Positions 3,747-35,189 of a stretch of DNA of 37,921 bases are shown here, in pieces. The DNA is from a virus. Taxonomy: Duplodnaviria; Heunggongvirae; Uroviricota; Caudoviricetes. Below the pieces are notes generated by a model, which was not told the origin of the DNA, did not search any database, and saw only the letters and a program-made list of their open reading frames with translations. The stretch is taken from the IMG/VR virus record IMGVR_UViG_2734482770_000007; one strand, 5' to 3'. The first letter of the stretch is position 1. Each line of letters opens with the position of its first letter. Position numbers and translations under genes: made by a program.

Positions 3747-3778
3747 TTCCATTTTGGGATACATCAGAGGTGTCGACC

Positions 3779-13209: not shown

Positions 13210-14972
13210 AAAATCTCCACAATATTGCTGGTATTGGCGGACTCGCCCTGCAGCGGTTCGTTAAACAGTGCGTGCATTGTTGCCCAGGCCAGATCGGCAT
13301 GGCTGGCTTCTTCGCTGCGGCTGGCTTCATAGGTCGGGCGGTTGCCACTGGCAGTGGTAGCGCGACGGATTGCCATAAATGACTGCGCAATGTCGGTGTG
13401 CCCGGCGTCAAACTCCAGACGGCGGTGGCTGATAATGTCGTAGGCCTTGAGTACCAGGGCGTTTTTAACGTTGGGGTTGTAGACAAACTCCCTGACGGCA
13501 GGAAAAAACGCTTTCACGTTCTCGTAAACCCCGTGACCGACGCCGGTCGAGTCGATGCCGATATAGGTCACGTTGTACTGTTCGGTCAGTTTTTTGATGG
13601 CGTCAGCCTGGGCGCGGAAGTCCATCCCGCGCCACTGGTGACGCTCAAGAATGCGGAACTTACCACCCGGCACGGCTGGCGGAGCCACCACCACGCATCC
13701 GGCACTATCGCCGTTCTGCGTACCTTTTGCCGGGTCATAACCGATCCACACCTCGCGCCAGCCAAACGGGCGCAGCGCCAGTGCATGAAAGTCGGTCCAG
13801 ACTTCCCAGCTGTCCACCATGCACGCCTGCAGCTCGCTGAGCGGAAACACGGACGCGAGATCGTCCACAAACTCGCACATCAGCAGGTTCTGGTATTCGT
13901 CCGGGCTGTACTCCATGCGCAACTGGTCAAGGTCGAACAGGTTACAGCCGCCGCGCACCGCATCTTCCACGGTGACTATCTGGCGGTATTGCCCGTCTGC
14001 GCACAGCAGGCCGGGGGCCAGATTGCTGTGGGACAGGTCGATGTCCACCTTATCGGCTTTGTTGCGCCCACGGTTGAACAGCGCACCGGACCAGAACGGA
14101 TAAGCACTGTGTGTCAGACTGGATGGCGTGGAAAAATAGGTTTGTCGCCATTTTTTGTGAATAGCCATACCGGAAGCCACTTTGCGCAGCTCCTGGAATT
14201 TCGGTATCCAGAAATATTCATCCAGATACAGGTTGCCGTGGTAACTCTGGGCCGTGCGGGCATTGGTGCCGAGGAAGTAAAGCGTGGCCCCGTTAGGAAG
14301 CACCATCGGATCGCCTTTCAGCTCCACCTCCACTTCTTTGGCAAAGTCGATGATGTACTGTTTAAAGACGTGAGCCTGAGCCTTGCTGGCAGAAAGGAAA
14401 ATCTGGTTACGCCCGGTCAGCAGGGCGTCAATCAGGGCTTCACGGGCAAAGTAAAAGGTCGCGCCGATCTGGCGAGACTTCAGCAGGTTGCGGATGCGAT
14501 TGGTTTTTCCGGCTTCCCACCAGTGGCGCTGGTAGTTGAACATGGAGGAATGGAAGATTTCTTCCAGCTTCTCAATCTGTTCATCGGTGAAAACATTCTT
14601 TTCCGGCTGACGGCGCGGGCCTTTGTTGCGGTTGGCGACGTTAGGGTTTAAGTCGGCTTCGTTGCCGCCATTGTTAAACTTGCCGATGCGCGCGTGGCGC
14701 TCCGACTGGCGCGCCAGCAGGTCAATCTCTTTGAAATCTTTCCCTTCTTTGTGCTCCTTCATAATGAGCTGGCAGTAGCGTGCGGCGGTGGTGAGCTGCA
14801 TCTGATCCAGCGGCCCATAGTCACCCCACTTGTCGCGTTTTTTCCAGCTATGAACGGTTGCAACTTTCTCGCCCAGCATTTCAGCAATGCGGGCGACGCG
14901 GTATCCCTGAAAGTACAGCAGCATGGCCTGCCGACGGGGATCGAGATCTGCGGGTGTCAGTGTGGTGTTCAT
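13206..14972 (-). CDS. P: Terminase large (ATPase) subunit (P2 gpP family)
   Basis: 588 aa (P2 P about 590 aa); overlaps portal start by 4 nt; divergent from scaffold gene. Confidence 0.9.
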   Translation of the reverse strand: MNTTLTPADLDPRRQAMLLYFQGYRVARIAEMLGEKVATVHSWKKRDKWGDYGPLDQMQLTTAARYCQLIMKEHKEGKDFKEIDLLARQSERHARIGKFNNGGNEADLNPNVANRNKGPRRQPEKNVFTDEQIEKLEEIFHSSMFNYQRHWWEAGKTNRIRNLLKSRQIGATFYFAREALIDALLTGRNQIFLSASKAQAHVFKQYIIDFAKEVEVELKGDPMVLPNGATLYFLGTNARTAQSYHGNLYLDEYFWIPKFQELRKVASGMAIHKKWRQTYFSTPSSLTHSAYPFWSGALFNRGRNKADKVDIDLSHSNLAPGLLCADGQYRQIVTVEDAVRGGCNLFDLDQLRMEYSPDEYQNLLMCEFVDDLASVFPLSELQACMVDSWEVWTDFHALALRPFGWREVWIGYDPAKGTQNGDSAGCVVVAPPAVPGGKFRILERHQWRGMDFRAQADAIKKLTEQYNVTYIGIDSTGVGHGVYENVKAFFPAVREFVYNPNVKNALVLKAYDIISHRRLEFDAGHTDIAQSFMAIRRATTASGNRPTYEASRSEEASHADLAWATMHALFNEPLQGESANTSNIVEIF

Positions 14973-15018
14973 GGCACAAACCTACAGCCTTGAATGAAGG
15001 CTTTCCCCGCCTGCGGTT

Positions 15019-15036
15019 TGTGTGGTTGTCGGTACA
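15019..15036. promoter_or_regulatory. Late-promoter activator box TGT-N12-ACA (Ogr/B site) upstream of O
   Basis: TGTGTGGTTGTCGGTACA read directly in the P/O divergent intergenic region, about 80 nt upstream of O start. Confidence 0.5.
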
Positions 15037-15114
15037 AATACCGCGCATTGTTTCACTGCCCCCATCACCGCAACCATAAGGCTCCAGTAAGTTTTTTCTA
15101 ACGGAGCACGGCTC

Positions 15115-15948
15115 ATGACAGTGAAAGCAAAGCGTTTTCGCATCGGGGTGGAAGGTGCCACCACCGATGGACGCGAAATCCAGCGTGAATGGCTGGAACA
15201 GATGGCAGCCAGCTACAACCCGGCGGTGTATACCGCGCTGATTAACCTTGAGCACATCAAGTCTTATCTGCCGGACAGCACCTTTAACCGCTACGGCAAG
15301 GTGACGGCGCTGTTTGCTGAAGAAATTACGGAAGGTCCGCTGGCAGGCAAGATGGCATTGTATGCCGACGTTGAGCCAACGGAGTCCCTGGTGGAACTGG
15401 TGAAAAAAGGCCAGAAATTATTCACCTCTATGGAAGTCAGCCCGAAGTTTGCTGATACGGGCAAAGCCTACCTGGTCGGCCTGGCTGCCACTGATGATCC
15501 AGCCAGTCTGGGTACGGAAATGCTGACATTCAGCGCCAGTGCAGCCCATAACCCGCTGGCAAACCGCAAGCAGAATCCTGCCAATCTCTTTACCGCTGCA
15601 GAGGAAACGGTGATCGAACTGGAAGAAGTCCAGGATGACAAACCGTCCCTGTTTGCCCGCGTCACGGCGTTGTTTACCAAAAAAGAGCAGTCCGATGACG
15701 CCCGGTTCGCTGATGTGCATAAGGCCGTGGAGCTGGTCGCCACTGAGCAGCAGAACCTGAGCGCACGCACCGAAAAATCCCTGTCTGAGCAGGAAGAACG
15801 CCTGTCTGAACTGGAGACTGCTCTGCAGGAGCAGCAAACCGCCTTTAACGAACTGGTGAATAAGTTGAGTCATGAAGACAGCCGCCAGGACTACCGCCAG
15901 CGTGCAACAGGCGGTAACGCCCCCGCTGACACTCTGACCAATTGCTGA
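15115..15948 (+). CDS. O: Capsid scaffolding protein (P2 gpO family)
   Basis: 277 aa; motifs FRIGVEG..TDGR, INLEH, YLVGLAATDDPASLGTE, SDDARFADVH match my recollection of P2 gpO. Confidence 0.85.
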   Translation: MTVKAKRFRIGVEGATTDGREIQREWLEQMAASYNPAVYTALINLEHIKSYLPDSTFNRYGKVTALFAEEITEGPLAGKMALYADVEPTESLVELVKKGQKLFTSMEVSPKFADTGKAYLVGLAATDDPASLGTEMLTFSASAAHNPLANRKQNPANLFTAAEETVIELEEVQDDKPSLFARVTALFTKKEQSDDARFADVHKAVELVATEQQNLSARTEKSLSEQEERLSELETALQEQQTAFNELVNKLSHEDSRQDYRQRATGGNAPADTLTNC

Positions 15949-15964
15949 TGGAGCACAAAACCTG

Positions 15965-17023
15965 ATGAAGAAGAATACCCGCTTTGCTTTTAACGCTTAC
16001 CTGCAGCAGCTGGCGCGTCTGAACGGTGTGGCAGTTGAAGAACTGTCCAGCAAGTTCACCGTGGAGCCGTCTGTACAGCAGACGCTGGAAGACCAGATCC
16101 AGCAGTCTGCCGCTTTCCTGACGCTGATTAACGTCACGCCAGTGACTGAGCAGTCCGGTCAGCTGCTGGGGTTGGGTGTTGGTAGCACCATTGCCGGAAC
16201 CACTGACACCACCGCGAAAGAGCGTGAACCTGTCGATCCTACGCTGATGGTCGATGTGGAATACAAATGCGAGCAGACCAACTTTGACACGGTACTGACC
16301 TACGCGAAGCTGGACCTGTGGGCGAAGTTTCAGGATTTCCAGGTGCGTATCCGTGACGCCATCGTGAAACGTCAGGCACTGGACCGCATCATGATCGGCT
16401 TTAACGGCGTGAAGCGTGCGAAAACCTCCAACCGTAGCGAAAACCCGCTGCTGCAGGATGTGAACAAAGGCTGGCTGCAGAAAATCCGTGAGGATGCACC
16501 GGATCATGTCATGGGCAGCACCACCACGGGCGGTGAAACCACACCGGGCGCGCTGAAAGTCGGGAAAGGTGGCGAATATGCCAACCTGGACGCCGTGGTG
16601 ATGGATGCCGTCAATGAGCTTATCGACGTGGTCTACCAGGACGATGACGATCTGGTGGTGATTTGCGGCCGTGAACTGCTGTCTGACAAGTATTTCCCGC
16701 TGGTCAACAAAGAGCAGGAAAACAGTGAAAAACTGGCTGCCGATATGATCATCAGTCAGAAGCGCATGGGGGGCCTGCAGGCCGTGCGTGCGCCGTTTTT
16801 CCCGCCGAATGCGCTGCTGATCACCCGTCTGGATAACCTGTCCATCTACTGGCAGGAAGACACCCGCCGCCGTTCAGTTATCGACAACCCGAAACGTGAC
16901 CGGATTGAAAACTTTGAATCCGTTAACGAAGCCTATGTGGTTGAGGACTACCGCTGCGCAGCACTGGTGGAAAACATCCAGATTGGCGACTTCAGCGCCG
17001 TCGCAGTAGAAACCGGAGCGTAA
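15965..17023 (+). CDS. N: Major capsid protein (P2 gpN family)
   Basis: 352 aa (P2 N about 357); follows scaffold gene. Confidence 0.9.
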   Translation: MKKNTRFAFNAYLQQLARLNGVAVEELSSKFTVEPSVQQTLEDQIQQSAAFLTLINVTPVTEQSGQLLGLGVGSTIAGTTDTTAKEREPVDPTLMVDVEYKCEQTNFDTVLTYAKLDLWAKFQDFQVRIRDAIVKRQALDRIMIGFNGVKRAKTSNRSENPLLQDVNKGWLQKIREDAPDHVMGSTTTGGETTPGALKVGKGGEYANLDAVVMDAVNELIDVVYQDDDDLVVICGRELLSDKYFPLVNKEQENSEKLAADMIISQKRMGGLQAVRAPFFPPNALLITRLDNLSIYWQEDTRRRSVIDNPKRDRIENFESVNEAYVVEDYRCAALVENIQIGDFSAVAVETGA

Positions 17024-17026
17024 TCC

Positions 17027-17677
17027 ATGAGCCTGAGTCCCGCACGGCAGCATCGCCTGCGCGTTCAGGCTGAACAGGCCGCCCGTGAGGGCGGCAGCGT
17101 TCGCCACGCGTCGGGCTATGACCTGATGCTGCTGCAACTGGCGGAAGACCGCCGCCGTCTCAAGGGCGTTCAGTCCACGGTCAAAAAAGCGGAAATCAAG
17201 GTGGAGCTGCTGCCGAAGTACGCCGCCTGGGCTGAGGGTGTACTGGCTGCCGGAGGCGCTCAACAGGATGACGTGCTGATGTACGTGATGCTGTGGCGCA
17301 TTGATGCCGGAGATTATGCCGGGGCGCTGGAGATCGGGCGTCATGCCCTGCGTCATGGCTGGGTGATGCCGCTGGGTAACCGCAACGTGCAGACCGTGCT
17401 GGCAGAGGAAATGGCAGACGCTGCGCAGAGCGCAATGCTTGCCGCCACCGGCTTTGATGCCGATCTGTTGCTGCAGACGCTGGAGCTGACAGACGGTCTG
17501 GATATGCCGGACCAGTCACGGGCGCGTCTGCATAAAGCGATTGGCACTGTCCTGAGTGAAAGTAATCCGGCTTCCGCCCTTAATCATCTCAACCATGCGT
17601 TACAGCTCGATCCCCGCTGTGGCGTGAAAAAAGACAAACAGCAGCTGGAGCGCAGATTGCGCAATGACAGTCGCTGA
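17027..17677 (+). CDS. M: Terminase small/endonuclease subunit (P2 gpM family)
   Basis: 216 aa, immediately after capsid gene as in P2. Confidence 0.8.
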   Translation: MSLSPARQHRLRVQAEQAAREGGSVRHASGYDLMLLQLAEDRRRLKGVQSTVKKAEIKVELLPKYAAWAEGVLAAGGAQQDDVLMYVMLWRIDAGDYAGALEIGRHALRHGWVMPLGNRNVQTVLAEEMADAAQSAMLAATGFDADLLLQTLELTDGLDMPDQSRARLHKAIGTVLSESNPASALNHLNHALQLDPRCGVKKDKQQLERRLRNDSR

Positions 17678-17772
17678 CAGAACGTGCCCCCGCGCACGGG
17701 CGGCACGGGGTGGCGAAAGGCACCGCCACATCAAAACCTCGTCCACCGCCCTCTATTTCAGGAGAAAGCAGC

Positions 17773-18237
17773 ATGAAGTTTGTTGCGCCAGAACAGGCAC
17801 CGGAACAGGCGGAAATCATCAGAAATACGCCGTTCTGGCCTGATGTGGACCTGTCGGAGTTTCGCAGCGTGATGCGCACTGACGGCACGGTGACGCAGCC
17901 GCGTTTAAAGCAGGTTGCCCTGTCGGCAATTTCGGAGGTCAACGCAGAGCTGTATGAGTTTCGCAGACGCCAGCAGATGCTGGGGTATGCCTCGCTGGCA
18001 GAGGTTCCGGCGGAACAGCTGGACGGCAAAAGTGAGCGCATTCAGCACTATTTCAACGCGGTTTACTGCTGGGCACGCGCCATGCTCAACGAGCGTTATC
18101 AGGACTATGACGCCACAGCGTCTGGTGTGAAGCGAGGCGAGGAACTGGCGGAAGCAAGCGGTGATTTGTGGCGTGACGCCCGCTGGGCCATCAGCCGGGT
18201 GCAGGATGCGCCGCACTGCACAGTGGAGCTTATCTGA
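17773..18237 (+). CDS. L: Head completion/stabilisation protein (P2 gpL family)
   Basis: Start chosen at ATG 17773 with GGAGAAAG SD (track start 17710 lacks SD); synteny. Confidence 0.75.
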   Translation: MKFVAPEQAPEQAEIIRNTPFWPDVDLSEFRSVMRTDGTVTQPRLKQVALSAISEVNAELYEFRRRQQMLGYASLAEVPAEQLDGKSERIQHYFNAVYCWARAMLNERYQDYDATASGVKRGEELAEASGDLWRDARWAISRVQDAPHCTVELI

Positions 18238-18440
18238 TGAAAGTGCGTGCGTATCAGTATGACACGGTGGACGCGCTTTGCTGGCGTCATTACGGGCGCA
18301 CGCAGGGTGTCACGGAGCAGGTACTGAAGGCAAATCCGGGGCTTGCCGAATACGGCCCCTTTTTACCTCACGGGCTGCAGGTGGAGCTGCCGGACATACC
18401 GACAACCACCACCGTGCAGACCGTCCAGCTATGGGACTGA
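18237..18440 (+). CDS. X: Tail protein X (LysM-like, P2 gpX family)
   Basis: 67 aa, identical length to P2 X; start overlaps L stop. Confidence 0.75.
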   Translation: MKVRAYQYDTVDALCWRHYGRTQGVTEQVLKANPGLAEYGPFLPHGLQVELPDIPTTTTVQTVQLWD

Positions 18441-18443
18441 ATT

Positions 18444-18659
18444 ATGACGCTTGAGCGAATCAGCGCCTTTATCACGTACTGCATCGCCGTTGTCCTGGCC
18501 TGGCTGGGCGATTTGTCCATCAAGGATGCCTCAACGCTGGGCGGCCTGATGATTGGTGTGCTGATGCTGGCTATCAACTGGTACTACAAACACAAAGCCT
18601 ACCAGCTTCTGCGCGACGGGCAGATCTCGCGGGAGGACTATGAATCCATCAATCGTTAA
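18444..18659 (+). CDS. Holin
   Basis: 71 aa with two hydrophobic helices and charged C-terminus; immediately upstream of endolysin. Confidence 0.65.
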   Translation: MTLERISAFITYCIAVVLAWLGDLSIKDASTLGGLMIGVLMLAINWYYKHKAYQLLRDGQISREDYESINR

Positions 18660-19152
18660 ACGCTGCCTTGTCGGGACCGTGCTGGCTATTGCTGCCACGC
18701 TGCCGGGTTTTCAGCAGCTTCACACCTCCGTGGAGGGGCTGAAACTGATTGCCGATTACGAAGGCTGTCGTCTGCAGCCGTATCAGTGCAGCGCGGGTGT
18801 ATGGACTGACGGCATTGGTAATACATCTGGCGTCATTCCCGGCAAAACCATTACGGAACGACAGGCAGCAGAAGGGCTTATCTCCAACGTGCTGCGTGTG
18901 GAGCGGTCACTGGAAAGGTGTGTGAAGCAACAGCCACCGCAGAAAGTGTATGACGCGGTGGTGTCATTTGCCTTCAACGTGGGGACAGGTAATGCCTGCA
19001 GCTCCACGCTGGTGAAATTACTCAATCAGCGGCGCTGGGCGGATGCGTGCCGACAGTTGCCGCGCTGGGTTTACGTGAAAGGTGTGTTTAATCAGGGGCT
19101 GGATAACCGCCGTGCGCGGGAGATGGCCTGGTGCTTACAGGGAGCAAACTGA
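18640..19152 (+). CDS. K: Endolysin, T4-lysozyme-like (GH24) with N-terminal signal-anchor (SAR-type)
   Basis: LKLIADYEGCRLQPYQCSAGVWTDGIGNT matches the catalytic E-x8-D/C-x5-T region of phage lysozymes; hydrophobic N-terminus CLVGTVLAIAATLPGF. Confidence 0.85.
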   Translation: MNPSIVKRCLVGTVLAIAATLPGFQQLHTSVEGLKLIADYEGCRLQPYQCSAGVWTDGIGNTSGVIPGKTITERQAAEGLISNVLRVERSLERCVKQQPPQKVYDAVVSFAFNVGTGNACSSTLVKLLNQRRWADACRQLPRWVYVKGVFNQGLDNRRAREMAWCLQGAN

Positions 19153-19153
19153 A

Positions 19154-19531
19154 ATGAAAAAGAAATTAATCAGCGGGCTGTTTCTGATGTTATGGATGGC
19201 GCTGTTAATCGAAGCAATGGTGTATCCGCAGGGGATTTTTCCGGTACTGGCAGCGTCCGGCGTTTGGGTAGCCTGTTTGCTGACATGGGCGGTAATTCCG
19301 GTAGCACTGGCTGCGTTAATTAAGAATGGCCCGCTCTGGCAGGAGTTGAGGGCATCTTTGCTGAAGACAATTACCCGAAAAGAAAACGTATTTATCAGCT
19401 GGGTGATGCGATTGCTGATTGTCGTCAGTCTCGCCTGGACGGGGTGGGCTATTACCCTGGTCTTTTATCTGCTGACCGTTATTGCCTTCTGGATGACCCG
19501 TAATCAGATTGCGCAACAGGTATCTGCATGA
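19154..19531 (+). CDS. lysA: LysA-like membrane protein (lysis timing)
   Basis: Multi-pass hydrophobic 125-aa product from ATG 19154 (MKKKLISGLFLML...); position as P2 lysA. Confidence 0.55.
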   Translation: MKKKLISGLFLMLWMALLIEAMVYPQGIFPVLAASGVWVACLLTWAVIPVALAALIKNGPLWQELRASLLKTITRKENVFISWVMRLLIVVSLAWTGWAITLVFYLLTVIAFWMTRNQIAQQVSA

Positions 19532-19956
19532 ACCGGTTGCTGCTGGTTGTGCTGGCGTTATTACTGGCGGCGCTGGGCTGGCAGACGTGGCGGCTGGCTG
19601 ATGCCAGCCAGACCATCAGCACGCAGGCAGACGAGCTGCAGAGCAAAAGCCAGGCACTGGCAAAGAGCAACAGCCAGCTTATCAGCCTGTCCATTCTGAC
19701 TGAAACCAATAACCGGGAGCAGGCGCGGCTCTATGCCGACGCAGAACAGACCAGCGCGCAGCTGAGACAACGACAACACCGAATTGAGGAACTGAAGCGT
19801 GAGAACGAGGGTTTACGCCGCTGGGCTGATACTCCTTTGCCTGCTGACATTATCCGGCTGCGGGAACGTCCGGCACTCACCGGAGGTGCAGCTTACCGTC
19901 AGTGGTTGTCCGCGAGTGACGCCGTGTCGGCTGGATCAGGCAGCGCCGCGCACTAA
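19528..19956 (+). CDS. lysB: Rz-like i-spanin (LysB)
   Basis: N-terminal TM helix then coiled-coil-rich periplasmic domain; contains embedded +1-frame lipoprotein gene. Confidence 0.65.
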   Translation: MNRLLLVVLALLLAALGWQTWRLADASQTISTQADELQSKSQALAKSNSQLISLSILTETNNREQARLYADAEQTSAQLRQRQHRIEELKRENEGLRRWADTPLPADIIRLRERPALTGGAAYRQWLSASDAVSAGSGSAAH

Positions 19957-20089
19957 CGGTGATCTGAACGCGTTGCTGGATGAAACGGAGGCCGCCTGGG
20001 CGGTCTGTGCAGACAAAGTGGACATGATTATTGCGTGTCAGGAGCGAAACAGTGAACAAACCACAATCCCTGCGCCACGCCCTCAATAA
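19799..20089 (+). CDS. lysC: Rz1-like o-spanin lipoprotein (LysC), embedded in lysB and overlapping R
   Basis: +1 frame inside lysB; lipobox LTLSGC after hydrophobic signal; Pro-rich mature part. Confidence 0.6.
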   Translation: MRTRVYAAGLILLCLLTLSGCGNVRHSPEVQLTVSGCPRVTPCRLDQAAPRTNGDLNALLDETEAAWAVCADKVDMIIACQERNSEQTTIPAPRPQ

Positions 20090-20483
20090 AGCGGTGCCTT
20101 ATGTCCGCAATAACCCGGACAAACTGCATCTGTTTGTGGATAACGGTTCGCTGGTTGCCACGGGGGCCAACTCCATGTCGTGGGAGTACCGTTACACCCT
20201 GAACGCGGTGATTGAGGATTTCAGCGGCGACCAGAATCTGCTGATGGCCCCGGTTTTGCTGTGGCTGAGGGATAACCAGCCCGATGCCATCAATAACCCG
20301 GCGTTACGGGAAAAACTATTCACCTTTGAGGTGGATATTCTGCGCAACGATGTCTGTGATATCAGTCTGAACCTGCAACTGACGGAGCGTGTGCTGGTCA
20401 GCACTGACGGTAGTGTGTCGAGCGTTGAAGCTATAGCGGAACCTGATGAACCTGAAGAAATGTGGACGGTGAAACGTGGCTGA
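20031..20483 (+). CDS. R: Tail completion protein (P2 gpR family)
   Basis: 150 aa; synteny and size. Confidence 0.75.
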   Translation: MRVRSETVNKPQSLRHALNKAVPYVRNNPDKLHLFVDNGSLVATGANSMSWEYRYTLNAVIEDFSGDQNLLMAPVLLWLRDNQPDAINNPALREKLFTFEVDILRNDVCDISLNLQLTERVLVSTDGSVSSVEAIAEPDEPEEMWTVKRG

Positions 20484-20922
20484 ACTGCAGAAAGTGGACG
20501 ACTGGCTGAGTGCCTTGCTGGCGAATCTGGAGCCAGCCGCAAGAAGCCGCATGATGCGCCAGCTGGCGCAGGAACTGCGCCGGATACAGCAGCAGAACAT
20601 CAGGATGCAACGCAATCCAGATGGCAGTAGTTATGAACCGCGACGGGTAACAGCACGCAGTAAAAAGGGGCGCATCAAACGTCAGATGTTTGCAAAGCTG
20701 CGAACCACAAAATACCTGAAAACTGCCGCCAGCGCCGATTCTGCCAGCGTGCAGTTTGAAGGCAAGGTACAGCGCATTGCCCGTGTTCACCATTACGGCT
20801 TGCGTGATCGCGTCAGCCGTAAGGGGCCACAGATACGTTATGCTAAACGTAGGTTACTTGGAATTTATGATACTGATTTTGATATTATAGAAGAGATAAT
20901 CATAAATTTTTTGATTCGTTAG
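20476..20922 (+). CDS. S: Tail completion protein (P2 gpS family)
   Basis: 148 aa; synteny and size; 3' end overlaps convergent cargo gene. Confidence 0.75.
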   Translation: MAELQKVDDWLSALLANLEPAARSRMMRQLAQELRRIQQQNIRMQRNPDGSSYEPRRVTARSKKGRIKRQMFAKLRTTKYLKTAASADSASVQFEGKVQRIARVHHYGLRDRVSRKGPQIRYAKRRLLGIYDTDFDIIEEIIINFLIR

Positions 20923-22081
20923 ATTCATTAATTTTCTTAAAGTATGAGTCTATTTTTTCAATTAATAAATTGATGCTTTTTATAAATTCTTTTGTTTCTT
21001 TCTCTGTTGGTTCATGTGATGTATGAGCTATTTTGTCACGTAATTCTTTCCTGTTTTTATTTGCATGTTGCCACTCAAGTGGCGCAATTTCGGGTACAGA
21101 GATGTTAAAGAGTTGTTTGAATAGTTTTTTACATCTATCATCGAACTTCCAGTTTTTATTTAATGTTTCTTTTGTCTGGCATTCATTGATACCATTGCGA
21201 TGAAAGGCATTAATAATTTTTCTGAGAATATAGCTTTCAAGGCCTGCTGATGCTTCAATTACGGCTGATCTAAATGCACCTTTATGAACAAGATTGTCTG
21301 CTCTAATCAATAATAGTTCAGGATGTTCATTGAATTCATTTGACATTAAACGTTTTTTGAAATTATCAATGAGACTTTCATCGTGTTTATACCAGCTTTC
21401 TCTCATTAATGGGGTGATTACTCCAACTAAAGGAATTGCACTTATCTTAATACCATCGCAATAATGCTCTTGTAACACTCCGTTGGTAAATCCTGAGCCA
21501 ACTTGATAAAGAGATATCTCGTCTGCAAATTGATCTTTAAAGGCAACTCTATACTGTTTTATAAAGTGGTTTATTATTCCGATACATTCCTCTGATCTTT
21601 TAGGTGGAAATATCTCTCTAGCAGTTTTTATTTTTCTCTCTAACTCTATTTTTTTATCTATATCTTGCTGGCTCATTTTGGATAGGAGCATCTCAGCATC
21701 TTCCACAGATGGGAAGTTATCTTCTTTCCTTATTTGGTTTCTTATAGAGTTGATTAGTTCTTCATGTGATATTTCTAAAAGGTCAAAACATTCCCAATAG
21801 TTGGCGAGAGAAATAATAGTCCGGCATTTCATTATCCCTCTTTCATTTGTGTGATGTGGTAGTAGTTGTTCTCTGGTACCGATTAATAGGGTTTGAGGGA
21901 ATAAGCTTGCATCTTTAAATAGTGCATAGTAATCGTTGTGAACTGTTAAGCGTAAATGGTTATTTTCATATAGAAAATCATAATCACCATCTGGAATATT
22001 GAGGACATAAGGCAACTCGACCAAGTAACGTGCAGCAAAGATCATTTCAGTCATCTCCATATGAGAATTCAATTGTGCCAA
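20900..22081 (-). CDS. Cargo protein of unknown function in the S-V (orf30-equivalent) locus; C-terminal HEPN-like Rx4H motif
   Basis: 393-aa ORF, strongly AT-rich by eye, antisense to flanking late genes; C-terminal KELRDKIAHTSHEP fits R-x4-H; no other recognisable motif. Confidence 0.7.
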   Translation of the reverse strand: MAQLNSHMEMTEMIFAARYLVELPYVLNIPDGDYDFLYENNHLRLTVHNDYYALFKDASLFPQTLLIGTREQLLPHHTNERGIMKCRTIISLANYWECFDLLEISHEELINSIRNQIRKEDNFPSVEDAEMLLSKMSQQDIDKKIELERKIKTAREIFPPKRSEECIGIINHFIKQYRVAFKDQFADEISLYQVGSGFTNGVLQEHYCDGIKISAIPLVGVITPLMRESWYKHDESLIDNFKKRLMSNEFNEHPELLLIRADNLVHKGAFRSAVIEASAGLESYILRKIINAFHRNGINECQTKETLNKNWKFDDRCKKLFKQLFNISVPEIAPLEWQHANKNRKELRDKIAHTSHEPTEKETKEFIKSINLLIEKIDSYFKKINESNESKNL

Positions 22082-22091
22082 AAATCATACA
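22074..22091. promoter_or_regulatory. Late-promoter activator box TGT-N12-ACA upstream of V
   Basis: TGTGCCAAAAATCATACA read directly; overlaps the start codon region of the divergent cargo gene. Confidence 0.5.
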
Positions 22092-22136
22092 CTGCCACAA
22101 CGATGAAAAAAAATCTTGCTTTGCAACTATAGAAGG

Positions 22137-22715
22137 ATGAATGCACAACTAACCGAAATCATGCGCCTTATCACCAACCTGATCCGCACTGGTGTAGTCA
22201 CCGAAGTGGACAGGGAAAACTGGCTTTGCCGGGTGAAAACAGGCGACTTAGAAACCAACTGGATCAGCTGGCTGACCCTGCGTGCCGGGAATGCCCGGAC
22301 ATGGTGGCGACCATCGGAAGGTGAGCAGGTGGTGCTGCTGAGTCTGGGCGGCAATCTGGAGACCGCCTTTGCGCTGCCCGCTGTCTATTCGAATCAGTTC
22401 GCACCACCGTCGACGTCGGCGGACGCCTGCGTGACAGAACATCCTGACGGTGGCTGGTTTGAATACGAACCCGCCACCGGGCGCTGGTATGTCAGGGGCA
22501 TCAAATCCATGGTTATTGAGGCTGCCGACAATATCACCCTGAAAACCAGTGAGTTTGTGCTGGAGGCTGACCGCACGCGTATTAATAGTGAAGTAGTGAT
22601 CAATGGCGGCGTTACCCAGGGCGGCGGTGCAATGAGTTCTAACGGAATTGTGGTTGATGCACATCAGCATACTGGCGTCCTGAAAGGCGGCGACACAACC
22701 GGAGGCCCGGTATGA
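22137..22715 (+). CDS. V: Baseplate spike/assembly protein (P2 gpV family)
   Basis: Start at ATG 22137 after AGAAGG; 192 aa; first gene of V-W-J-I-H block. Confidence 0.8.
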   Translation: MNAQLTEIMRLITNLIRTGVVTEVDRENWLCRVKTGDLETNWISWLTLRAGNARTWWRPSEGEQVVLLSLGGNLETAFALPAVYSNQFAPPSTSADACVTEHPDGGWFEYEPATGRWYVRGIKSMVIEAADNITLKTSEFVLEADRTRINSEVVINGGVTQGGGAMSSNGIVVDAHQHTGVLKGGDTTGGPV

Positions 22716-23071
22716 CGCTTTATAGCGGGATGAACAATACCAGCGGCAAAGTCATTACTGATATTGACCATCTGCGCCAGTCGGTGCGGGACATTCTGCT
22801 GACGCCGCAGGGTAGCCGCATTGCCCGTCGGGAATATGGTTCCCTACTGTCGGCACTGATAGATCAGCCACAAAATCCGGCATTACGCCTGCAGGTCATG
22901 TCGGCAGTGTATGTGGCGCTGAGTCGCTGGGAGCCACGGCTGACGCTGGATTCCATCACCATCAACAGCAACTTTGACGGTTCTATGGTGGTGGAGCTGA
23001 CCGGGCGGCGGAATAACGGTGTGCCTGTGTCCCTTTCCGTATCAACAGGAGCAGAGAATGGCAGTGATTGA
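22712..23071 (+). CDS. W: Baseplate wedge protein (P2 gpW / gp25-like)
   Basis: 119 aa; overlaps V stop; synteny. Confidence 0.8.
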   Translation: MTLYSGMNNTSGKVITDIDHLRQSVRDILLTPQGSRIARREYGSLLSALIDQPQNPALRLQVMSAVYVALSRWEPRLTLDSITINSNFDGSMVVELTGRRNNGVPVSLSVSTGAENGSD

Positions 23072-23966
23072 CCTTTCGCAGTTGCCTGCACCGCAGATTG
23101 TGGATGTGCCGGACTTTGAGACGCTGCTTGCCGAACGCAAGGCAGAATTTGTGGCGCTTCATCCGAAAGATGAGCAGGAAGCCGTGATCCGCACGCTGGA
23201 ACTGGAATCTGAACCCGTCACTAAATTGTTGCAGGAGAACGCTTACCGTGAGTTGCTTCTGCGCCAGCGCATTAACGAAGCCGCGCAGGCGGTGATGGTG
23301 GCTTACGCGATGGGCGGCGATCTTGACCAGCTCGCTGCCAACTACAACGTGACACGCCTGACGGTGACGCCTGCTGATAATGATGCTGTGCCGCCCGTTG
23401 CAGCTGTGATGGAAAGCGATGAAGCGTTACGCCTGCGTGTGCCTGCAGCCTTTGAAGGGCTTTCTGTTGCGGGGCCAACTGCAGCTTATGAATTTCATGC
23501 CCGAAGCGCCGACGGTCGGGTGGCGGATGCCAGTGCAACCAGCCCGGCACCTGCAGAGGTGGTGCTGACTGTCCTTAGCCGCGAAGGCGATGGAACTGCA
23601 GAAAAAGACCTGCTGGACGTGGTGGAAAAAGCTCTGAACAGTGAGAACGTCCGCCCGGTGGCTGACCGTCTGAGGGTTCGCAGCGCAGAAATCATCCCGT
23701 ATCGCGTGGAAGCCACCATTTTTCTCTATCCGGGACCGGAAGCAGAGCCGGTAATGGCAGCGGCAAAAGCCAGCCTGCAGAAGTACATCGCCAGTCAGAC
23801 GCGTCTTGGTCGGGATATTCGCCGTAGCGCCATCTTTGCCGCCCTGCATGTTGAGGGTGTGCAGCGTGTGGAGCTGGCTTCTCCTCTGGCGGATGTGGTC
23901 CTGAACAAAACACAGGCGGCATCATGTACGCAGTGGAGCGTAACCAACGGAGGAACGGATGAATAG
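23058..23966 (+). CDS. J: Baseplate protein J
   Basis: Start at ATG 23058 (MAVIDLSQLPAP...) matching P2 J N-terminus pattern; 302 aa. Confidence 0.85.
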   Translation: MAVIDLSQLPAPQIVDVPDFETLLAERKAEFVALHPKDEQEAVIRTLELESEPVTKLLQENAYRELLLRQRINEAAQAVMVAYAMGGDLDQLAANYNVTRLTVTPADNDAVPPVAAVMESDEALRLRVPAAFEGLSVAGPTAAYEFHARSADGRVADASATSPAPAEVVLTVLSREGDGTAEKDLLDVVEKALNSENVRPVADRLRVRSAEIIPYRVEATIFLYPGPEAEPVMAAAKASLQKYIASQTRLGRDIRRSAIFAALHVEGVQRVELASPLADVVLNKTQAASCTQWSVTNGGTDE

Positions 23967-24564
23967 TCTGCTGCCACCGGGTTCAACTTCACTGGAGCGC
24001 CGACTGGCGCAAACCTGTAGCGGGATTTCTGATCTGCAGGTGCCGCTGCGTGACTTGTGGAATCCGGCTACCTGTCCGGTCAGCTTCCTGCCTTATCTCG
24101 CCTGGGCGTTCTCTGTGGATCGCTGGGACGAGGGCTGGACAGAAAGCGTCAAACGCCAGGTAGTGAAGGATGCTTTTTATATTCATCAGCATAAAGGGAC
24201 CACCAGTGCCGTGCGGCGGGTGGTGGAGCCGTTCGGCTTTCTGATCCGCATTATTGAGTGGTGGCAGACCGGAGAGGCACCGGGCACGTTTCGCCTGGAT
24301 ATCGGCGTGCAGGACCAGGGCATCACTGAAGATACCTATCTGGAACTTGAGCGACTGATAAGCGATGCCAAACCATGTAGCCGCCACATGATCGGCATGT
24401 CCATCAATCTGCAGACCAGCGGCCCGCATTGGGTGGGAGCCGCCAGCTATCTTGGTGAAGAAATCACGATCTATCCGTATATCAACGAAACAATTATTTC
24501 CGGCGGCACCGCGCATGAAGGCGGGGCGGTCCATGTTATTGACACAATGAGAGTGAATCCATGA
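23959..24564 (+). CDS. I: Baseplate/tail-fibre attachment protein (P2 gpI family)
   Basis: 201 aa; overlaps J stop and H start. Confidence 0.75.
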   Translation: MNSLLPPGSTSLERRLAQTCSGISDLQVPLRDLWNPATCPVSFLPYLAWAFSVDRWDEGWTESVKRQVVKDAFYIHQHKGTTSAVRRVVEPFGFLIRIIEWWQTGEAPGTFRLDIGVQDQGITEDTYLELERLISDAKPCSRHMIGMSINLQTSGPHWVGAASYLGEEITIYPYINETIISGGTAHEGGAVHVIDTMRVNP

Positions 24565-26045
24565 GCACAAAATTTTATACCCTGCTGACGGATATTGGCG
24601 CGGCGAAACTTGCCAGCGCCGCCGCGCTCGGTGTGCCGCTAAAAATTACCCATATGGCGGTGGGCGATGGCGGCGGAGCATTGCCGACGCCGGACGCAAA
24701 GCAGACGGCACTGGTAAATGAGAAACGCCGGGCTGCGCTGAATATGCTCTATATCGACCCGCAGAACAGCAGCCAGATTATTGCTGAACAGGTGATCCCT
24801 GAAAATGAGGGTGGTTGGTGGATACGTGAAGTGGGTCTGTTTGATGAGTCCGGGGCATTGATTGCCGTAGGCAACTGCCCGGAAAGCTATAAGCCGCAAC
24901 TGGCTGAAGGCAGCGGGCGCACCCAGACCGTGCGCATGGTGCTGATTACCAGCAGCACGGACAATATCACCCTGAAAATCGACCCTGCCGTCGTGCTGGC
25001 AACCCGCAAGTATGTGGATGACAAGGTACTGGAGCTGAAGGTGTTCGTGGATGATAAGATGGCAAAACATCTTGCCGCACCGGACCCGCATTCACAGTAT
25101 GCATCTAAAGAAAGCCCGACATTGACCGGAACACCCAAAGCGCCAACGCCAGCGGAGGGGAATAACACCACGCAGATTGCGACCACCGCGTTTGTTCAGG
25201 CCGCTATTACTGCTCTGATTAACGGTGCGCCAGCCACGCTGGACACACTGAAAGAAATTGCCGCAGCCATTAACAATGACCCGAAATTCAGTACCACCAT
25301 TAACAATGCGCTGGCACTAAAAGCACCGCTGTCGAGTCCGGCACTCACCGGAACGCCAACAGCACCTACTGCGGCACAGTCGGTCAACAATACACAGATT
25401 GCCACTACAGCTTTTGTGAAATCAGCGATTGCAGCAATGGTGGGTTCTGCACCTGCGGCACTGGATACACTGAACGAACTGGCGGCGGCGCTGGGGAATG
25501 ACCCGAACTTTGCCACGACAATGCTTAATGCACTGGCAGGTAAACAACCGCTGGACAATACGCTGACTAATTTGAGTGGAAAGGATGTAGCTGGTCTTCT
25601 CACATACCTTCAATTGGGAGAAGCGGCAAAACGGGATGTCGGAACCGGTAATAATCAACTCCCGGACATGTCCGCATTTGGTATGTCGCGAAACGGACAA
25701 ACTACCTGGGATATTCTCCCAAATGGTATGATTCGACAGGCTGGCACTGTGACACTGACACCAGTTGGTAACTTCAACTCGCAGGTGCTTGGTGGGGTGA
25801 CGTACTACACCCATTACTACAGGGTTAATTTCCCCAGACAATTCCCAAATGCACAAATAGCAACGCTGGCAACACTAGCGAGTTACAGCTATTCGACCCA
25901 GGCAACAATGGCCGGAAAATCACTGGCAACGCATCGCGATACTGATTCTGGCACTGACGTATCAAGAACGCGATTCACTGTGGCGTATACGACACCCAAT
26001 CTCGGCGAAACACCGACACTGCATTTTGAAGCAATAGGATACTAA
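24561..26045 (+). CDS. H: Tail fibre protein (P2 gpH family), C-terminal domain within invertible segment
   Basis: 494 aa; internal tandem fibre repeats; hix-like crossover site at codons 346-354. Confidence 0.85.
   Translation: MSTKFYTLLTDIGAAKLASAAALGVPLKITHMAVGDGGGALPTPDAKQTALVNEKRRAALNMLYIDPQNSSQIIAEQVIPENEGGWWIREVGLFDESGALIAVGNCPESYKPQLAEGSGRTQTVRMVLITSSTDNITLKIDPAVVLATRKYVDDKVLELKVFVDDKMAKHLAAPDPHSQYASKESPTLTGTPKAPTPAEGNNTTQIATTAFVQAAITALINGAPATLDTLKEIAAAINNDPKFSTTINNALALKAPLSSPALTGTPTAPTAAQSVNNTQIATTAFVKSAIAAMVGSAPAALDTLNELAAALGNDPNFATTMLNALAGKQPLDNTLTNLSGKDVAGLLTYLQLGEAAKRDVGTGNNQLPDMSAFGMSRNGQTTWDILPNGMIRQAGTVTLTPVGNFNSQVLGGVTYYTHYYRVNFPRQFPNAQIATLATLASYSYSTQATMAGKSLATHRDTDSGTDVSRTRFTVAYTTPNLGETPTLHFEAIGY
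25113..25556 (+). repeat. Tandem in-frame repeat (two copies of about 74 codons) within tail fibre gene
   Basis: Protein segments SPTLTGTPKAP...NNTTQIATTAFVQAAI...LDTLKEIAAAINNDPKF and SPALTGTPTAP...NNTQIATTAFVKSAI...LDTLNELAAALGNDPNF are clearly paralogous. Confidence 0.55.
25597..25622. promoter_or_regulatory. hix/gix-like 26-bp invertase crossover site (left), core TT
   Basis: TTCTCACATACC TT CAATTGGGAGAA; imperfect dyad resembling Hin hixR; inverted partner at 27131-27156 (19 of 26 identical in inverted orientation). Confidence 0.55.
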
Positions 26046-26047
26046 AT

Positions 26048-26281
26048 ATGGAGAATATCTATTTCAGCCCAACGACCGTTGGTTTTTATGTTTCTGAACA
26101 AGAGCGACCTGATGATGCGGTTGAAGTCTCGCCAGAGGTGGAGGCATTTTTGAGGGAGTGTGTTATCTGGGGAGCGGATACATTTAACGTAGAGCGAGAT
26201 GCAGCAACGGTGACATATCCAACAGAACTGCTTGAATATGTCACCACCTACAACGCCCCCGTTAAATATCCTGCGGATTGA
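26048..26281 (+). CDS. Small protein immediately downstream of H, possible fibre chaperone for current orientation
   Basis: 77-aa ORF starting 2 nt after H stop (TAA-NN-ATG), same arrangement as the inverted cassette; no recognisable tfa motif. Confidence 0.4.
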   Translation: MENIYFSPTTVGFYVSEQERPDDAVEVSPEVEAFLRECVIWGADTFNVERDAATVTYPTELLEYVTTYNAPVKYPAD

Positions 26282-26672
26282 CAGGCCATACGGGTTTGGC
26301 TGTATCAACGCGCATCAGCAAGACCCGGTATTTTTTCCATTCAGATAACGCGGCGGTTTCTTCTGCCGTCGCGATTTCCGCATCAAAAGCATCCTGTCTC
26401 CAGACTATTTCCTTATCAGCCATAGAACGCAATACCGTTCTTTTCTGTTCAGCCTGAATAATCTGTTGTTCAGCGGAGAGTGGCGGGATATCAATCCACT
26501 CAGGATTACCATTTTTATCAGCCCCCAGCGTTTTGCCTTGTGGCGCTACGCCTGTGTAAATTGCCATTGTTTCATCATCAACATCAACGCCATTTTCAGG
26601 CCATGAACCGGCGCTGATATATACCTCTTTTAGTGCTTTCGGATAGAAAGAGCCTTTATAAAATTTATTCAT
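26262..26672 (-). CDS. Tail fibre assembly protein (Tfa), paired with the alternative fibre cassette
   Basis: C-terminal [32 protein letters not shown] matches conserved Tfa C-terminus (lambda Tfa [27 protein letters not shown]); start taken at ATG 26672, 2 nt after cassette stop (track start 26702). Confidence 0.7.
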   Translation of the reverse strand: [136 protein letters not shown]

Positions 26673-26674
26673 TC

Positions 26675-27184
26675 TTAATACCCCAGCGCGATAAAACAAC
26701 AATCTTCGGTGCCCTCTCCGGATGGCGACCAGTTCTGAATACTGATATGCGTTCTGCTGGCAATACGCACATTCATCGCGGCATTGTAGCCAGATGTTCC
26801 ACGGTTTCCGGTCGCAAATAAGCCTGCATAGGGAAAAGCAAATGGTAAGGCATATCCAGCATCAGCTCCCTTTTGTGTTGCCACCGTTCCCCACTGCAAC
26901 ATAAGTTTCACCGGGTTTCCTGTCGTCGCAATGCATGGAATGTAGATGTAGCCATTCCCTGACATCATTGACCTGAAGCTATCTAAATCCAGTAACTTCG
27001 AGGCATTATCTGCTCCAACATCTCGTGTTGCGGCGGTCCCTAACTGGAGCGTATTTCGGAAGGCTGATACATCAGAAATATCAGCTCCATTAGCCGATTT
27101 CTGCATAGCTCCGGAGGCTTTATTTATCGTTTCTCCCAAACCAACGTTTATGAAAATGCAGAGATAACGGCTAACTGGCATCAT
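26675..27184 (-). CDS. Alternative tail-fibre C-terminal cassette (promoterless in this orientation)
   Basis: Minus-strand ORF with LQLGTAATRDVG paralogous to H YLQLGEAAKRDVG; contains hix-like site near its 5' end, in the same codon phase as the site in H, so inversion would fuse it in frame to H codons 1-354. Confidence 0.6.
   Translation of the reverse strand: MMPVSRYLCIFINVGLGETINKASGAMQKSANGADISDVSAFRNTLQLGTAATRDVGADNASKLLDLDSFRSMMSGNGYIYIPCIATTGNPVKLMLQWGTVATQKGADAGYALPFAFPYAGLFATGNRGTSGYNAAMNVRIASRTHISIQNWSPSGEGTEDCCFIALGY
27131..27156. promoter_or_regulatory. hix/gix-like 26-bp invertase crossover site (right), core AA
   Basis: TTCTCCCAAACC AA CGTTTATGAAAA; about 20 of 26 match to Hin hixL as recalled (TTCTTGAAAACCAAGGTTTTTGATAA). 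Confidence 0.6.
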
Positions 27185-27205
27185 CTCCGGTTTTTATTCA
27201 GGGGG

Positions 27206-27777
27206 ATGATCATGCTTATTGGCTATGTACGCGTGTCAACAAATGACCAGAACACCGATTTGCAACGCAATGCACTGAACTGTGCGGGATGTGAGCGGAT
27301 TTTTGAGGATAAAATCAGTGGCACCAAGTCCGACAGACCGGGGCTGAAAAAGCTGCTCAGGACACTATCGGCAGGAGACACGCTGGTTGTCTGGAAGCTG
27401 GACAGACTGGGCGCAGTATGCGGCATCTTGTTACGCTGATAGAAGCGCTGCGCCAGCGTGGCGTGAATTTCCGAAGCCTGACTGACAGTATTGATACCAG
27501 CACCCCAATGGGCCGTTTCTTTTTTCATGTCATGGGTGCCCTGGCTGAAATGGAACGCGAACTGATAGTTGAACGTACCAGGGCGGGGCTGGCTGCAGCT
27601 CGTGCTAAAGGCAGAGTAGGTGGACGCCGTCCTAAGTTGACCAGCGAACAGTGGTCACAGATTGGGCGTTTACTCGAGGCCGGAGAATCAAGACAGCGTA
27701 TTGCACTGATTTTTGATGTAGGCGTTTCTACCATTTATCGAAAATTTCCGGCAAATAAGAACAATAAATCTCCCTGA
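27206..27777 (+). pseudogene. Serine DNA invertase (Hin/Gin/Cin/Pin family) disrupted by a 1-nt frameshift
   Basis: Two ORFs (27206..27439, 27418..27777) together align with Hin: MLIGYVRVSTNDQN (catalytic Ser), VVWKLDRLG then frame change to MRHLVTLIEAL...SLTDSIDTS...GRFFFHVMGALAEMERELIVERT...VSTIYR (HTH). Intact frame would need one extra base near 27412. Confidence 0.75.
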
Positions 27778-27825
27778 ATCAGCTTTATTTTGATTATCCC
27801 TGAAAGCAGACAAATACCGTCATTT

Positions 27826-27843
27826 TGTGTGAATAACGGTACA
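27826..27843. promoter_or_regulatory. Late-promoter activator box TGT-N12-ACA upstream of sheath gene
   Basis: TGTGTGAATAACGGTACA; near-identical in outline to the O-promoter box (TGTGTG...CGGTACA); about 85 nt upstream of FI start. Confidence 0.5.
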
Positions 27844-27919
27844 ACTGCGCTTAGCTGTTTGTCAGGCACAATCACTTCAACATAGGGCGAAGCCTAATCC
27901 AATCAGGAGGTTCGCCACT

Positions 27920-29092
27920 ATGGCTCAGGATTACCACCACGGGGTGCGCGTTGTTGAAGTCAACGAAGGCACCCGATCCATTACCACGGTGAGCACCGCC
28001 ATCGTGGGTATGGTCTGCACGGGCGATGATGCCGATGCAAAAATGTTTCCTCTTAATAAACCCGTGCTGATCACTGATGTGCTGACTGCCAGCGGTAAAG
28101 CGGGTGAGTCAGGCACGCTGGCTCGTTCGCTGGATGCCATCGCTGACCAGGCAAAACCCGTGACCGTTGTTGTGCGTGTGCCGCAGGGTGAAACGGAAGA
28201 AGAAACCACGACCAATATCATCGGAGCAGTGACCGCTGAAGGTAAAAAAACAGGCATGAAAGCCCTGTTATCTGCCCAGTCACAGCTCGGCGTTAAACCG
28301 CGCATTCTCGGCGTGCCAGGTCACGACACGAAGGCGGTAGCTACTGAGTTGCTGAGCGTGGCGCAAAGCCTGCGTGGATTTGCTTACCTGTCAGCGTATG
28401 GTTGCAAGACAGTGCAGGAAGCAATCACTTACCGTGAAAACTTCAGTCAGCGTGAAGGAATGCTGATCTGGCCCGACTTTACTGGCTGGGACACGGTGCT
28501 GAATGCCGAAGCAACGGCTTATGCCACCGCCCGTGCGCTTGGTCTGCGCGCCAAAATTGACGAGCAGACCGGATGGCACAAAAGCCTGTCCAACGTGGGC
28601 GTTAACGGTGTCACCGGAATTTCTGCTGATGTGTTCTGGGATCTGCAGGACCCGGCAACCGATGCGGGACTGCTGAACCAGAACGACGTCACCACCCTTA
28701 TCCGCAAAGACGGTTTTCGCTTCTGGGGTTCCCGCTGCCTGAGTGATGACCCGCTCTTTGCCTTCGAAAACTACACCCGCACGGCGCAGGTGCTGACGGA
28801 CACGATGGCAGAAGCGCACATGTGGGCGGTGGATAAACCGCTGAATCCGTCGCTGGCCCGCGACATTATCGAGGGTATCCGCGCCAAAATGCGCAGCCTG
28901 GTCAGTCAGGGCTATCTCATTGGTGGTGATTGCTGGCTGGATGAGTCGGTGAACGACAAAGACACGCTGAAAGCCGGAAAACTCACCATCGACTACGACT
29001 ACACGCCAGTGCCGCCACTTGAAAACCTGATGCTGCGTCAGCGCATCACCGATCAGTACCTGGTGAATTTCTCCAGCCAGGTCAGCGCGTAA
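27920..29092 (+). CDS. FI: Tail sheath protein (P2 gpFI family)
   Basis: 390 aa (P2 FI about 396); followed by tube gene. Confidence 0.9.
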
Positions 29093-34847: not shown

Positions 34848-35066
34848 ATGATGATTTGCCCACTGTGTGGAAGTGCCGCCCATACTCGCAGCAGTTTTCA
34901 GGTATCTTCATTGACCAAAGAGCGTTACAACCAGTGCCAGAACATTAACTGCAGCCATACTTTTGTTACCCATGAAACTTTTGTTCGTTCGATTGCAACG
35001 CCAAAAGAGTCAAATCCGGTTCAGCCGCATCCAATGAAATCAGGACAGGTGGCGCTCTCTCTTTGA
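34848..35066 (+). CDS. ogr: Zinc-finger late-gene transcription activator (P2 Ogr / 186 B family)
   Basis: 72 aa from ATG 34848 (GGAGA SD): CPLCGSAAHTRSS...KERYNQCQNINCSHTF matches Ogr Cys4 pattern CPLC...CQN.NCS.TF; last prophage gene before host DNA. Confidence 0.85.
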   Translation: MMICPLCGSAAHTRSSFQVSSLTKERYNQCQNINCSHTFVTHETFVRSIATPKESNPVQPHPMKSGQVALSL

Positions 35067-35142
35067 CTCTGCCGCCATTTTGTCGCCATCGTTAAAAAAC
35101 AGTGTTTCTAACATCATGATTTTAAACAGCTTAAATTTCAGG

Positions 35143-35189
35143 CAACAAAAAACCCATCAACCTTGAACCGAAATGGCGGGGTTGATGGG
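35143..35189 (-). terminator. Rho-independent terminator (minus strand) downstream of ybjL
   Basis: 10-bp stem cccatcaacc / ggttgatggg with 17-nt loop, followed on minus strand by TTTTTT. Confidence 0.4.

Follow-up and report, generated by a model that had tools for sequence, protein, structure and literature searches.

When a temperate phage turns on its virion genes, does the same switch also act on a cargo gene that faces one of its activator sites? The question is raised by a stretch of DNA of 37,921 nucleotides (nt) (IMG/VR virus record IMGVR_UViG_2734482770_000007; hereafter the window), judged from its sequence to be a P2-family prophage of Escherichia coli with a 186-type immunity region. 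Its late genes are preceded by three boxes of the form TGT-N12-ACA, and the middle one, upstream of gene V, lies close to the start of an antisense gene, here called the cargo gene. A preliminary description of the window had proposed that the boxes are sites for an activator of the Ogr (P2) or B (186) type and that the V box coincides with the 5' end of the cargo gene, with possible interference between late activation and cargo expression. Our analysis supports the first proposal and corrects the second: the reading that we favour, with a probability of roughly 0.8, is that the three boxes are sites of the late-promoter activator and that none of them overlaps the cargo coding sequence.

Three boxes at four late promoters

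The three 18-mers all occur in the window as exact matches to TGT-N12-ACA. They are listed here with the genes around them, whose identities come from Pfam assignments.

15019-15036, box of the O (and P) promoter, TGTGTGGTTGTCGGTACA, exact TGT-N12-ACA
22074-22091, box of the V promoter, TGTGCCAAAAATCATACA, exact TGT-N12-ACA
27826-27843, box of the FI promoter, TGTGTGAATAACGGTACA, exact TGT-N12-ACA
12169-13209, minus strand, Q
13206-14972, minus strand, P, terminase large subunit, first gene of the leftward late operon (Terminase_6N, Terminase_6C, Terminase_5)
15115-15948, plus strand, O, capsid scaffold, first gene of the rightward head/lysis operon (Phage_GPO, E = 4.9e-114)
15115 onward, head/lysis genes from O through R and S
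20900-22045, minus strand, antisense cargo gene
22137-22715, plus strand, V, baseplate spike, first gene of the baseplate/tail-fibre operon (Phage_base_V, Apex)
22137 onward, V, W, J, I and tail fibre
27920-29092, plus strand, FI, tail sheath, first gene of the tail operon (Phage_sheath_1, Phage_sheath_1C, Gp18_domIII_N)
27920 onward, tail operon from FI to D
34848-35066, plus strand, Ogr/B homologue

The O and FI boxes are the same at 14 of 18 positions, their outer 6 and 7 bases being identical. With dyad centres at 15027.5 (O), 22082.5 (V) and 27834.5 (FI), the distance from centre to ATG is 87.5 nt for O, 54.5 for V and 85.5 for FI, in agreement with the P2 layout, and the first centre also lies 55.5 nt from the ATG of P. 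The order of the late operons is that of the P2 and 186 records, with boxes preceding P-Q, O to S, V to G and FI to D, and the late region is ~97% identical to those of Escherichia phage 500465-1 and Klebsiella phage 4LV2017 (BLAST).

A pattern of such low information could produce three matches by chance, and the count of the bare motif that the preliminary description had suggested as a check, run over the whole window, weighs on that side: 12 matches were found against 9.64 ± 3.11 expected, and 29 of 100 dinucleotide-preserving shuffles contained at least 12. None of the nine other matches has a plausible role; six lie wholly within genes, one covers the P start codon and two (1111 and 37603) fall outside the listed genes. 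Showing no enrichment, the count turned out to be powerless in either direction, and we discarded it as a test. Against chance stand the positions of the boxes, which are those of the annotated sites of P2 and 186; for all three promoters to carry an exact match within ±5 nt of the place expected from P2, the chance probability is ~2e-8. An independent score came from a weight matrix for which 48 non-redundant boxes were taken from other phages, each of them more than 4 mismatches (over 26 nt) away from the window's sites. The matrix, with the consensus ATTGTGT-N8-ACACAAT, ranks the three boxes highest in the window (O 21.5, FI 21.3, V 18.0), followed by scores of 16.1 and 14.6, the maxima in shuffled sequence averaging 12.1 ± 2.6. 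To this is added a 100% conservation at fixed distances amid unrelated flanks, described below for each promoter. Chance is already refuted by these comparative data, and its remaining probability is negligible. The score of 14.6 belongs to a near-box, TGCGTCATTCTCGCTACA (TGC...ACA, 34559-34576), inside gene D and ~290 nt upstream of the activator gene; being within the range of shuffled sequence, it was set aside as a further site.

The element carries its own activator gene. The 72-amino acid (aa) product of 34848-35066 matches Pfam Ogr_Delta (E = 6.7e-22), its translation has the zinc-finger cysteine spacing CX2CX22CX4C, and its identity is 51% with P2 Ogr and 54% with 186 B. In P2, 186 and P4, the activators Ogr, B and delta recruit RNA polymerase via its alpha subunit, with the dyad centre ~55 bp upstream of the transcription start. 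By analogy, the zinc-finger protein of the window, bound to the three TGT-N12-ACA dyads, would switch on four late promoters, the dyad centre lying ~55 bp upstream of the predicted start at each of them. If the starts are set at centre + 54.5 or 55.5, -10-like hexamers fall at -12 to -7, as listed below; it counts against the reading that all late start sites of this element are predictions from sequence. The identification of the boxes as Ogr/B-type sites thus draws on this homologue, on the annotated sites of the P2 and 186 RefSeq records and on published work, in which TGT-N12-ACA is the common consensus of the Ogr-dependent P2 promoters PP, PO, PV and PF (PMC3931495, which cites Christie & Calendar 1985 and Julien & Calendar 1995).

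14979-14984, minus strand, candidate P -10, TAGGTT (at -12 to -7 if the start is the A of the P ATG, 14972)
15071-15080, plus strand, candidate O -10 region, CAACCATAAG (centre + 55.5; predicted start ~15083)
22122-22130, plus strand, candidate extended V -10, TGCAACTAT (predicted start at or beside the V ATG)
27878-27886, plus strand, candidate FI -10 region, CAACATAGG (centre + 55.5; predicted start ~27890)

The box at 15019-15036 is common to the divergent P (leftward) and O (rightward) promoters, so that four promoters are served by three boxes. This shared use, like the leaderless mRNAs proposed below for P and V, was absent from the preliminary description; in phage Smp131, a single site read on both strands likewise serves PP' and PO' (PMC3931495). 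The box is exact in 40 of 40 GTDB loci from many enterobacterial genera, in which the O protein is 59-98% identical. When distances were compared among these relatives (loci L246-L290), every one of the 33 distinct intergenic regions with a correctly located P start had its dyad centre 55.5 nt away from the P ATG, and the distance between centre and O ATG ranged from 81.5 to 100.5 nt, a spread of 19 nt. Because the distance to P is invariant, the P mRNA is predicted to be leaderless. The candidate P -10 fits such a start: those relatives that were read by hand at this position show TAnnnT (TATGTT and TAGTCT), and the mapped P promoter of P2 has TAGCCT at -12 to -7 of its start site (NC_001895). 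As the N-termini of the window's P, P2 P and 186 Orf12 align from the same Met, the simplest reading would be that this lineage has lost the P leader. Two points weigh against it, namely that the 22-23 nt leader of P2 and 186 makes a leaderless P a departure from both references, and that a single invariant distance carries the prediction. On the O side, the -10-like hexamer is CAACCA (15071-15076), within a block, GCAA(A/C)CATAAGG, kept in all relatives examined.

Another exact TGT-N12-ACA, with a weight-matrix score of 16.1, lies over the P start codon (14961-14978), 58 bp from the main box; it is kept in some relatives and lost in many (CATGGCCCAA variants). We rejected it as a separate P box because of this position and these losses, and because P2 and 186 use one shared site. 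It is probably a chance product of the coding sequence, though it might be a weak second site.

At FI, the box is exact in all 61 distinct upstream sequences obtained from 78 loci (FI 91-100% identical), at -87 to -94 from the FI ATG. The -10-like hexamer is CAACAT (27878-27883), and (G/C)AACATA(G/A)G is kept across divergent FI upstream sequences, ~45 nt downstream of the box.

The V promoter shows the same constancy in much more variable surroundings. An exact TGT-N12-ACA precedes V in 85 of 85 loci, and its 5' end is always at -63 to -66 from the V ATG; the V start itself is the one annotated by PGAP in NZ_CP073968. V proteins at least 97% identical to that of the window came from 80 loci of IMG/VR and from four genomes of E. 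coli. When the separately fetched homologues of the cargo family (L306 and L307) were added, the DNA upstream of V fell into 17 mutually unrelated classes, in which the 44 nt after the box average 30% identity, approximately the random level, and the centre-to-ATG distance stays within 54.5-57.5 nt. TG-n-CAAnnT was recognised by eye near V in classes L002, L003, L004, L067 and L077 and in P2 pV. Since the box-to-ATG distance and the ~55-bp geometry of the activator put the start at the ATG, the V mRNA is probably leaderless, as the P2 record annotates for P2 V, and the P mRNA likewise. In the majority of the V-upstream classes, no Shine-Dalgarno sequence precedes V. The window is an exception, with GAAGGA just before the V ATG; a leaderless mRNA would exclude this sequence, which argues against the proposed start.

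The cargo gene start and its possible promoter

The overlap claimed between the V box and the cargo gene derives from a mechanical list of open reading frames (ORFs), which gives 20900-22081 with a TTG start, a 393-aa product and 8 nt in common with the box. Were this the true start, the activator would act on the gene start itself, and one Logan-derived homologue (P0008) is indeed called with a similar N-terminal extension. The other evidence converges downstream. In an E. coli genome of 99.7% identity, PGAP lets the gene start at ATG 22060, and the PHROG 28299 profile begins at residue 3 of that protein. Moreover, MIFAARYL is the N-terminus in 17 of 23 homologue clusters, among them every distant one (41-47% identity), and corresponds to ATG 22045; this codon is preceded 9 nt upstream by GGAG, and the residues before it are without conservation. 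The supported starts are thus 22045, 22054 and 22060, and only the mechanical TTG at 22081 is within the box. The homologues fix the cargo start at ATG 22045, 28 nt from the edge of the box (22074), and because the coding sequence ends these 28 nt short of it, the overlap is an artefact of ORF calling. A coding start inside the box is very improbable.

Interference could still take place between promoters. The cargo and V ATGs are separated by 91 nt, which form a divergent control region, and a cargo promoter must therefore share this stretch or lie inside V. The features concerned are the following.

22055-22058, minus strand, cargo Shine-Dalgarno sequence, GGAG, 9 nt upstream of ATG 22045
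22072-22100, minus strand, candidate cargo promoter, TTGTGG-N17-CACAAT (-35 at 22100-22095, -10 at 22077-22072)
22093-22113, block found only in the cargo family, TGCCACAA-N3-TGAAAAAAAA, between the box and the V -10 region

Nine intergenic regions of the cargo family were compared. Eight of them keep a block on the right side of the box (TTGCCACAAAGnTGAAAAAAA) almost unchanged, amid variation in the N12 and in the bases nearest the cargo gene, and the 22093-22113 block is missing from the other V-upstream classes. On the cargo strand, TTGTGG-N17-(C/T/A)ACAAT follows a T-tract in seven of the nine regions, whose cargo proteins are 41-99% identical. Its -10 is the left half-site of the V box. 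From this candidate promoter, transcription is predicted to start at ~22065, giving a leader of ~20 nt that contains GGAG. Another possible -10 inside the box, TATGAT, was rejected in favour of TTGTGG-N17-nACAAT, since it is not conserved in the homologues.

Such a cargo promoter would straddle the V dyad, with the box in its spacer and in part of its -10, and the V and cargo promoters would stand back to back with predicted starts ~72 bp apart. If so, the activator and polymerase at the V promoter would be mutually exclusive with polymerase at the cargo promoter. Interference with late activation is plausible because the block of the cargo family yields a candidate promoter spanning the box, and we put the cargo promoter and the interference forward tentatively, with the odds somewhat against them. 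Several observations weigh on the negative side: the -35 and -10 match the consensus weakly (3/6 and 4/6 positions), a promoter scan of the V/cargo region reported none in the intergenic stretch, the -35/-10 pair is missing in two of the nine homologous regions, and part of the cargo -10 would be conserved in any case because it is the activator half-site.

These first three observations would equally suit a cargo gene transcribed from elsewhere, inside V or further upstream, with real boxes and no occlusion at the V box. In that case the 22093-22113 block would have its function in the V promoter, where it might, for instance, form an A-tract bend that separates activator from polymerase, and its location at about -45 to -24 of that promoter is one where the shape of DNA could matter. 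Yet the block is missing in the unrelated V-upstream classes, all of which keep the box, so that it is dispensable for the V promoter in itself; it follows the cargo family down to 41% protein identity while the nearby intergenic bases vary; and, with only 91 nt between the two ATGs, an outside promoter would have to be inside V. We consider transcription from elsewhere unlikely, though not far-fetched.

Cargo at the S/V junction

The window carries its cargo in the junction between S and V.

20923-22136, S/V junction of the window

All eight cargo homologues for which the context was fetched occupy this same place, antisense to V. The cargo region is also found in E. coli MB30 and E2348/69, with 99.6-99.7% identity. 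Among relatives with V at least 97% identical (loci L002-L085), the junction is either empty or filled with an AT-rich insert. When empty it measures 68 nt, and the box starts 4 nt after the S stop codon. The filled junctions hold at least 13 different, unrelated AT-rich inserts (31-37% GC), two of them larger (1.9-2.2 kb). All the inserts but one are antisense, with starts roughly -19 to +90 nt from the box; the sense-strand one (L003) encodes a TIR-domain protein. Homology between the classes returns no earlier than the V ATG, so that every cassette brings a V promoter of its own. What is exchanged at the S/V junction thus includes this promoter with its box, and its 17 unrelated versions, which keep only the dyad and the distance to V, represent a clean natural footprint of what the activator needs.

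Accessory and defence hotspots of the P2 family are known at the TO region, the Z region and the orf30 locus (PMC3091744; Rousset et al. 2022, PMC9122126; bioRxiv 10.64898/2026.02.27.708500), and the cargo gene sits at the last of these. The orf30 locus is recognised in PMC3091744 as a site of horizontally acquired genes, and the bioRxiv report mentions defence hotspots within P2 late genes. In the passages of these three sources that were reached by term searches, neither V promoters borne by cassettes with a box at fixed distance nor the present cargo family are described.

The cargo gene is AT-rich (34% GC) and its 381-aa product is composed of an N-terminal beta-rich domain and a C-terminal HEPN domain in an AlphaFold2 model built from a 22-sequence alignment (mean predicted local distance difference test score, pLDDT, of 85). 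The C-terminal domain has the HEPN helical fold, and the protein also contains the catalytic Rx4-6H motif, with R336 and H341 (RDKIAH) invariant in the 22 sequences down to 41% identity. Pfam matches among these 22 members were below threshold (HEPN_AbiV in seven, best E = 0.0054; HEPN_RiboL-PSP in five), and for this reason we do not file the protein under any named HEPN family. It weighs against the assignment that no Pfam HEPN model matched the cargo protein above threshold and that PADLOC gave no match, which leaves fold and motif to carry it. More generally, nothing above threshold was found in Pfam, NCBIfam or PADLOC for the protein, BLAST in distant mode gave no match of the cargo DNA to phage genomes, and the cargo profile had nothing significant among PDB sequences. 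A below-cutoff match to the catalytic domain of cysteinyl-tRNA synthetase (CysRS; E = 1.8e-4) was judged spurious.

By our reading, the cargo protein is probably an anti-phage or abortive-infection ribonuclease (RNase). It differs from the known HEPN toxins and anti-phage proteins, such as the HEPN domain of AbiA, LsoA, HepS and the HEPN/MNT toxins, in having no Pfam HEPN or PADLOC match, in its N-terminal beta-rich domain, which gave no informative match, and in a cassette without a partner (antitoxin) gene. It represents an uncharacterised family of HEPN fold missed by current defence catalogues, and its gene is a candidate defence gene. As the control region of this gene is interleaved with a late promoter, a 100-bp fragment suffices to address how prophages silence their defence genes during their own lytic growth.

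Junction, promoter and protein together allow a more speculative scenario, which we regard as distinctly unlikely. In it, the cassettes bring their own V promoter, the HEPN-like family has built its cargo promoter around the box, and the late activator silences the resident defence or toxin gene when the virion genes turn on. Such an arrangement would be a built-in handover from lysogenic defence to lytic growth.

The prophage and its relation to P2 and 186

The other features of the window complete the map of the element.

1-1053, minus strand, int
1136-2812, minus strand, PD-Lambda-1-like gene, 558 aa, between int and cI
2833-3429, minus strand, CI, 186-type
3725-4288, CII
6430-8844, A
9718-11295, plus strand, HEPN_LA2681 protein, 525 aa (Pfam HEPN_LA2681, E = 1.8e-38)
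27206-27777, invertase
35302-36987, minus strand, host permease gene (Asp-Al_Ex/TrkA_C)

Two of these genes extend the cargo of the prophage. The product of 1136-2812 matches the PADLOC PD-Lambda-1 model (E = 2.4e-120) and Pfam T5orf172, MUG113 and DUF4041, and the gene is a second cargo or defence gene. The one at 9718-11295, between A and Q, has the position of the old/tin hotspot of P2, and with it the prophage has two different HEPN-type cargo genes. Beside the tail-fibre segment, a Hin/Gin-type invertase is split by a frameshift after KLDRLG (~27410) into two ORFs, 27206-27439 and 27418-27777. It is intact (190 aa) in 27 related loci, and the break in the window marks either a pseudogene or an error of sequencing; no inverted repeats of at least 18 nt were found to flank the tail-fibre segment. 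As the phage genes stop after the activator gene and a host-type permease lies beyond, the prophage boundary (attachment site) is expected at ~35070-35300.

Among known systems, 186 has a CI/CII immunity region of the same type as the window, its divergent p12 and pV promoters use one B site between them, comparable to the P/O box, and its equivalent of the pF site is the pJ B site, ~58 bp from the mapped start (NC_001317). Its B protein is 54% identical to the activator of the window. The sites of 186 read TGT-N12-CCA, whereas those of the window are perfect TGT-N12-ACA; its S/V junction is empty (69 bp, no cargo gene), whereas that of the window is filled; and its P homologue has a leader of ~22 nt, whereas P of the window is predicted to be leaderless.

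P2 has the same four operons, driven by Ogr from PP, PO, PV and PF. In its record (NC_001895), pO and pP have a common activator site (3057-3087), with their start sites 55-56 bp away in the two directions; pV has a site at 10239-10266 and starts transcription at the first base of V, and a pF site lies at 17555-17583. The distance of ~55 bp between site centre and start is the one predicted for the window, and the activator gene lies downstream of D in both. P2 also has an antisense gene beside its pV site, the non-essential orf30, which starts 15 bp from that site (NC_001895), a layout like that of the cargo gene, although the two genes are unrelated and belong to different PHROGs. The activators are only 51% identical, and the sites of P2 itself are imperfect (TGT-N12-CCA at pO/pP and pF, TGT-N11-ACA at pV), in contrast with the three perfect ones of the window. 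Finally, P has a 23-nt leader in P2, whereas the P ATG of the window lies at the predicted start, so that the terminase mRNA would be leaderless in this lineage, unlike in P2 and 186. The late-promoter architecture as a whole is that of the known Ogr/B system, mainly confirmatory, and the boxes are an ordinary finding because they belong to the classic layout of the P2/186 family.

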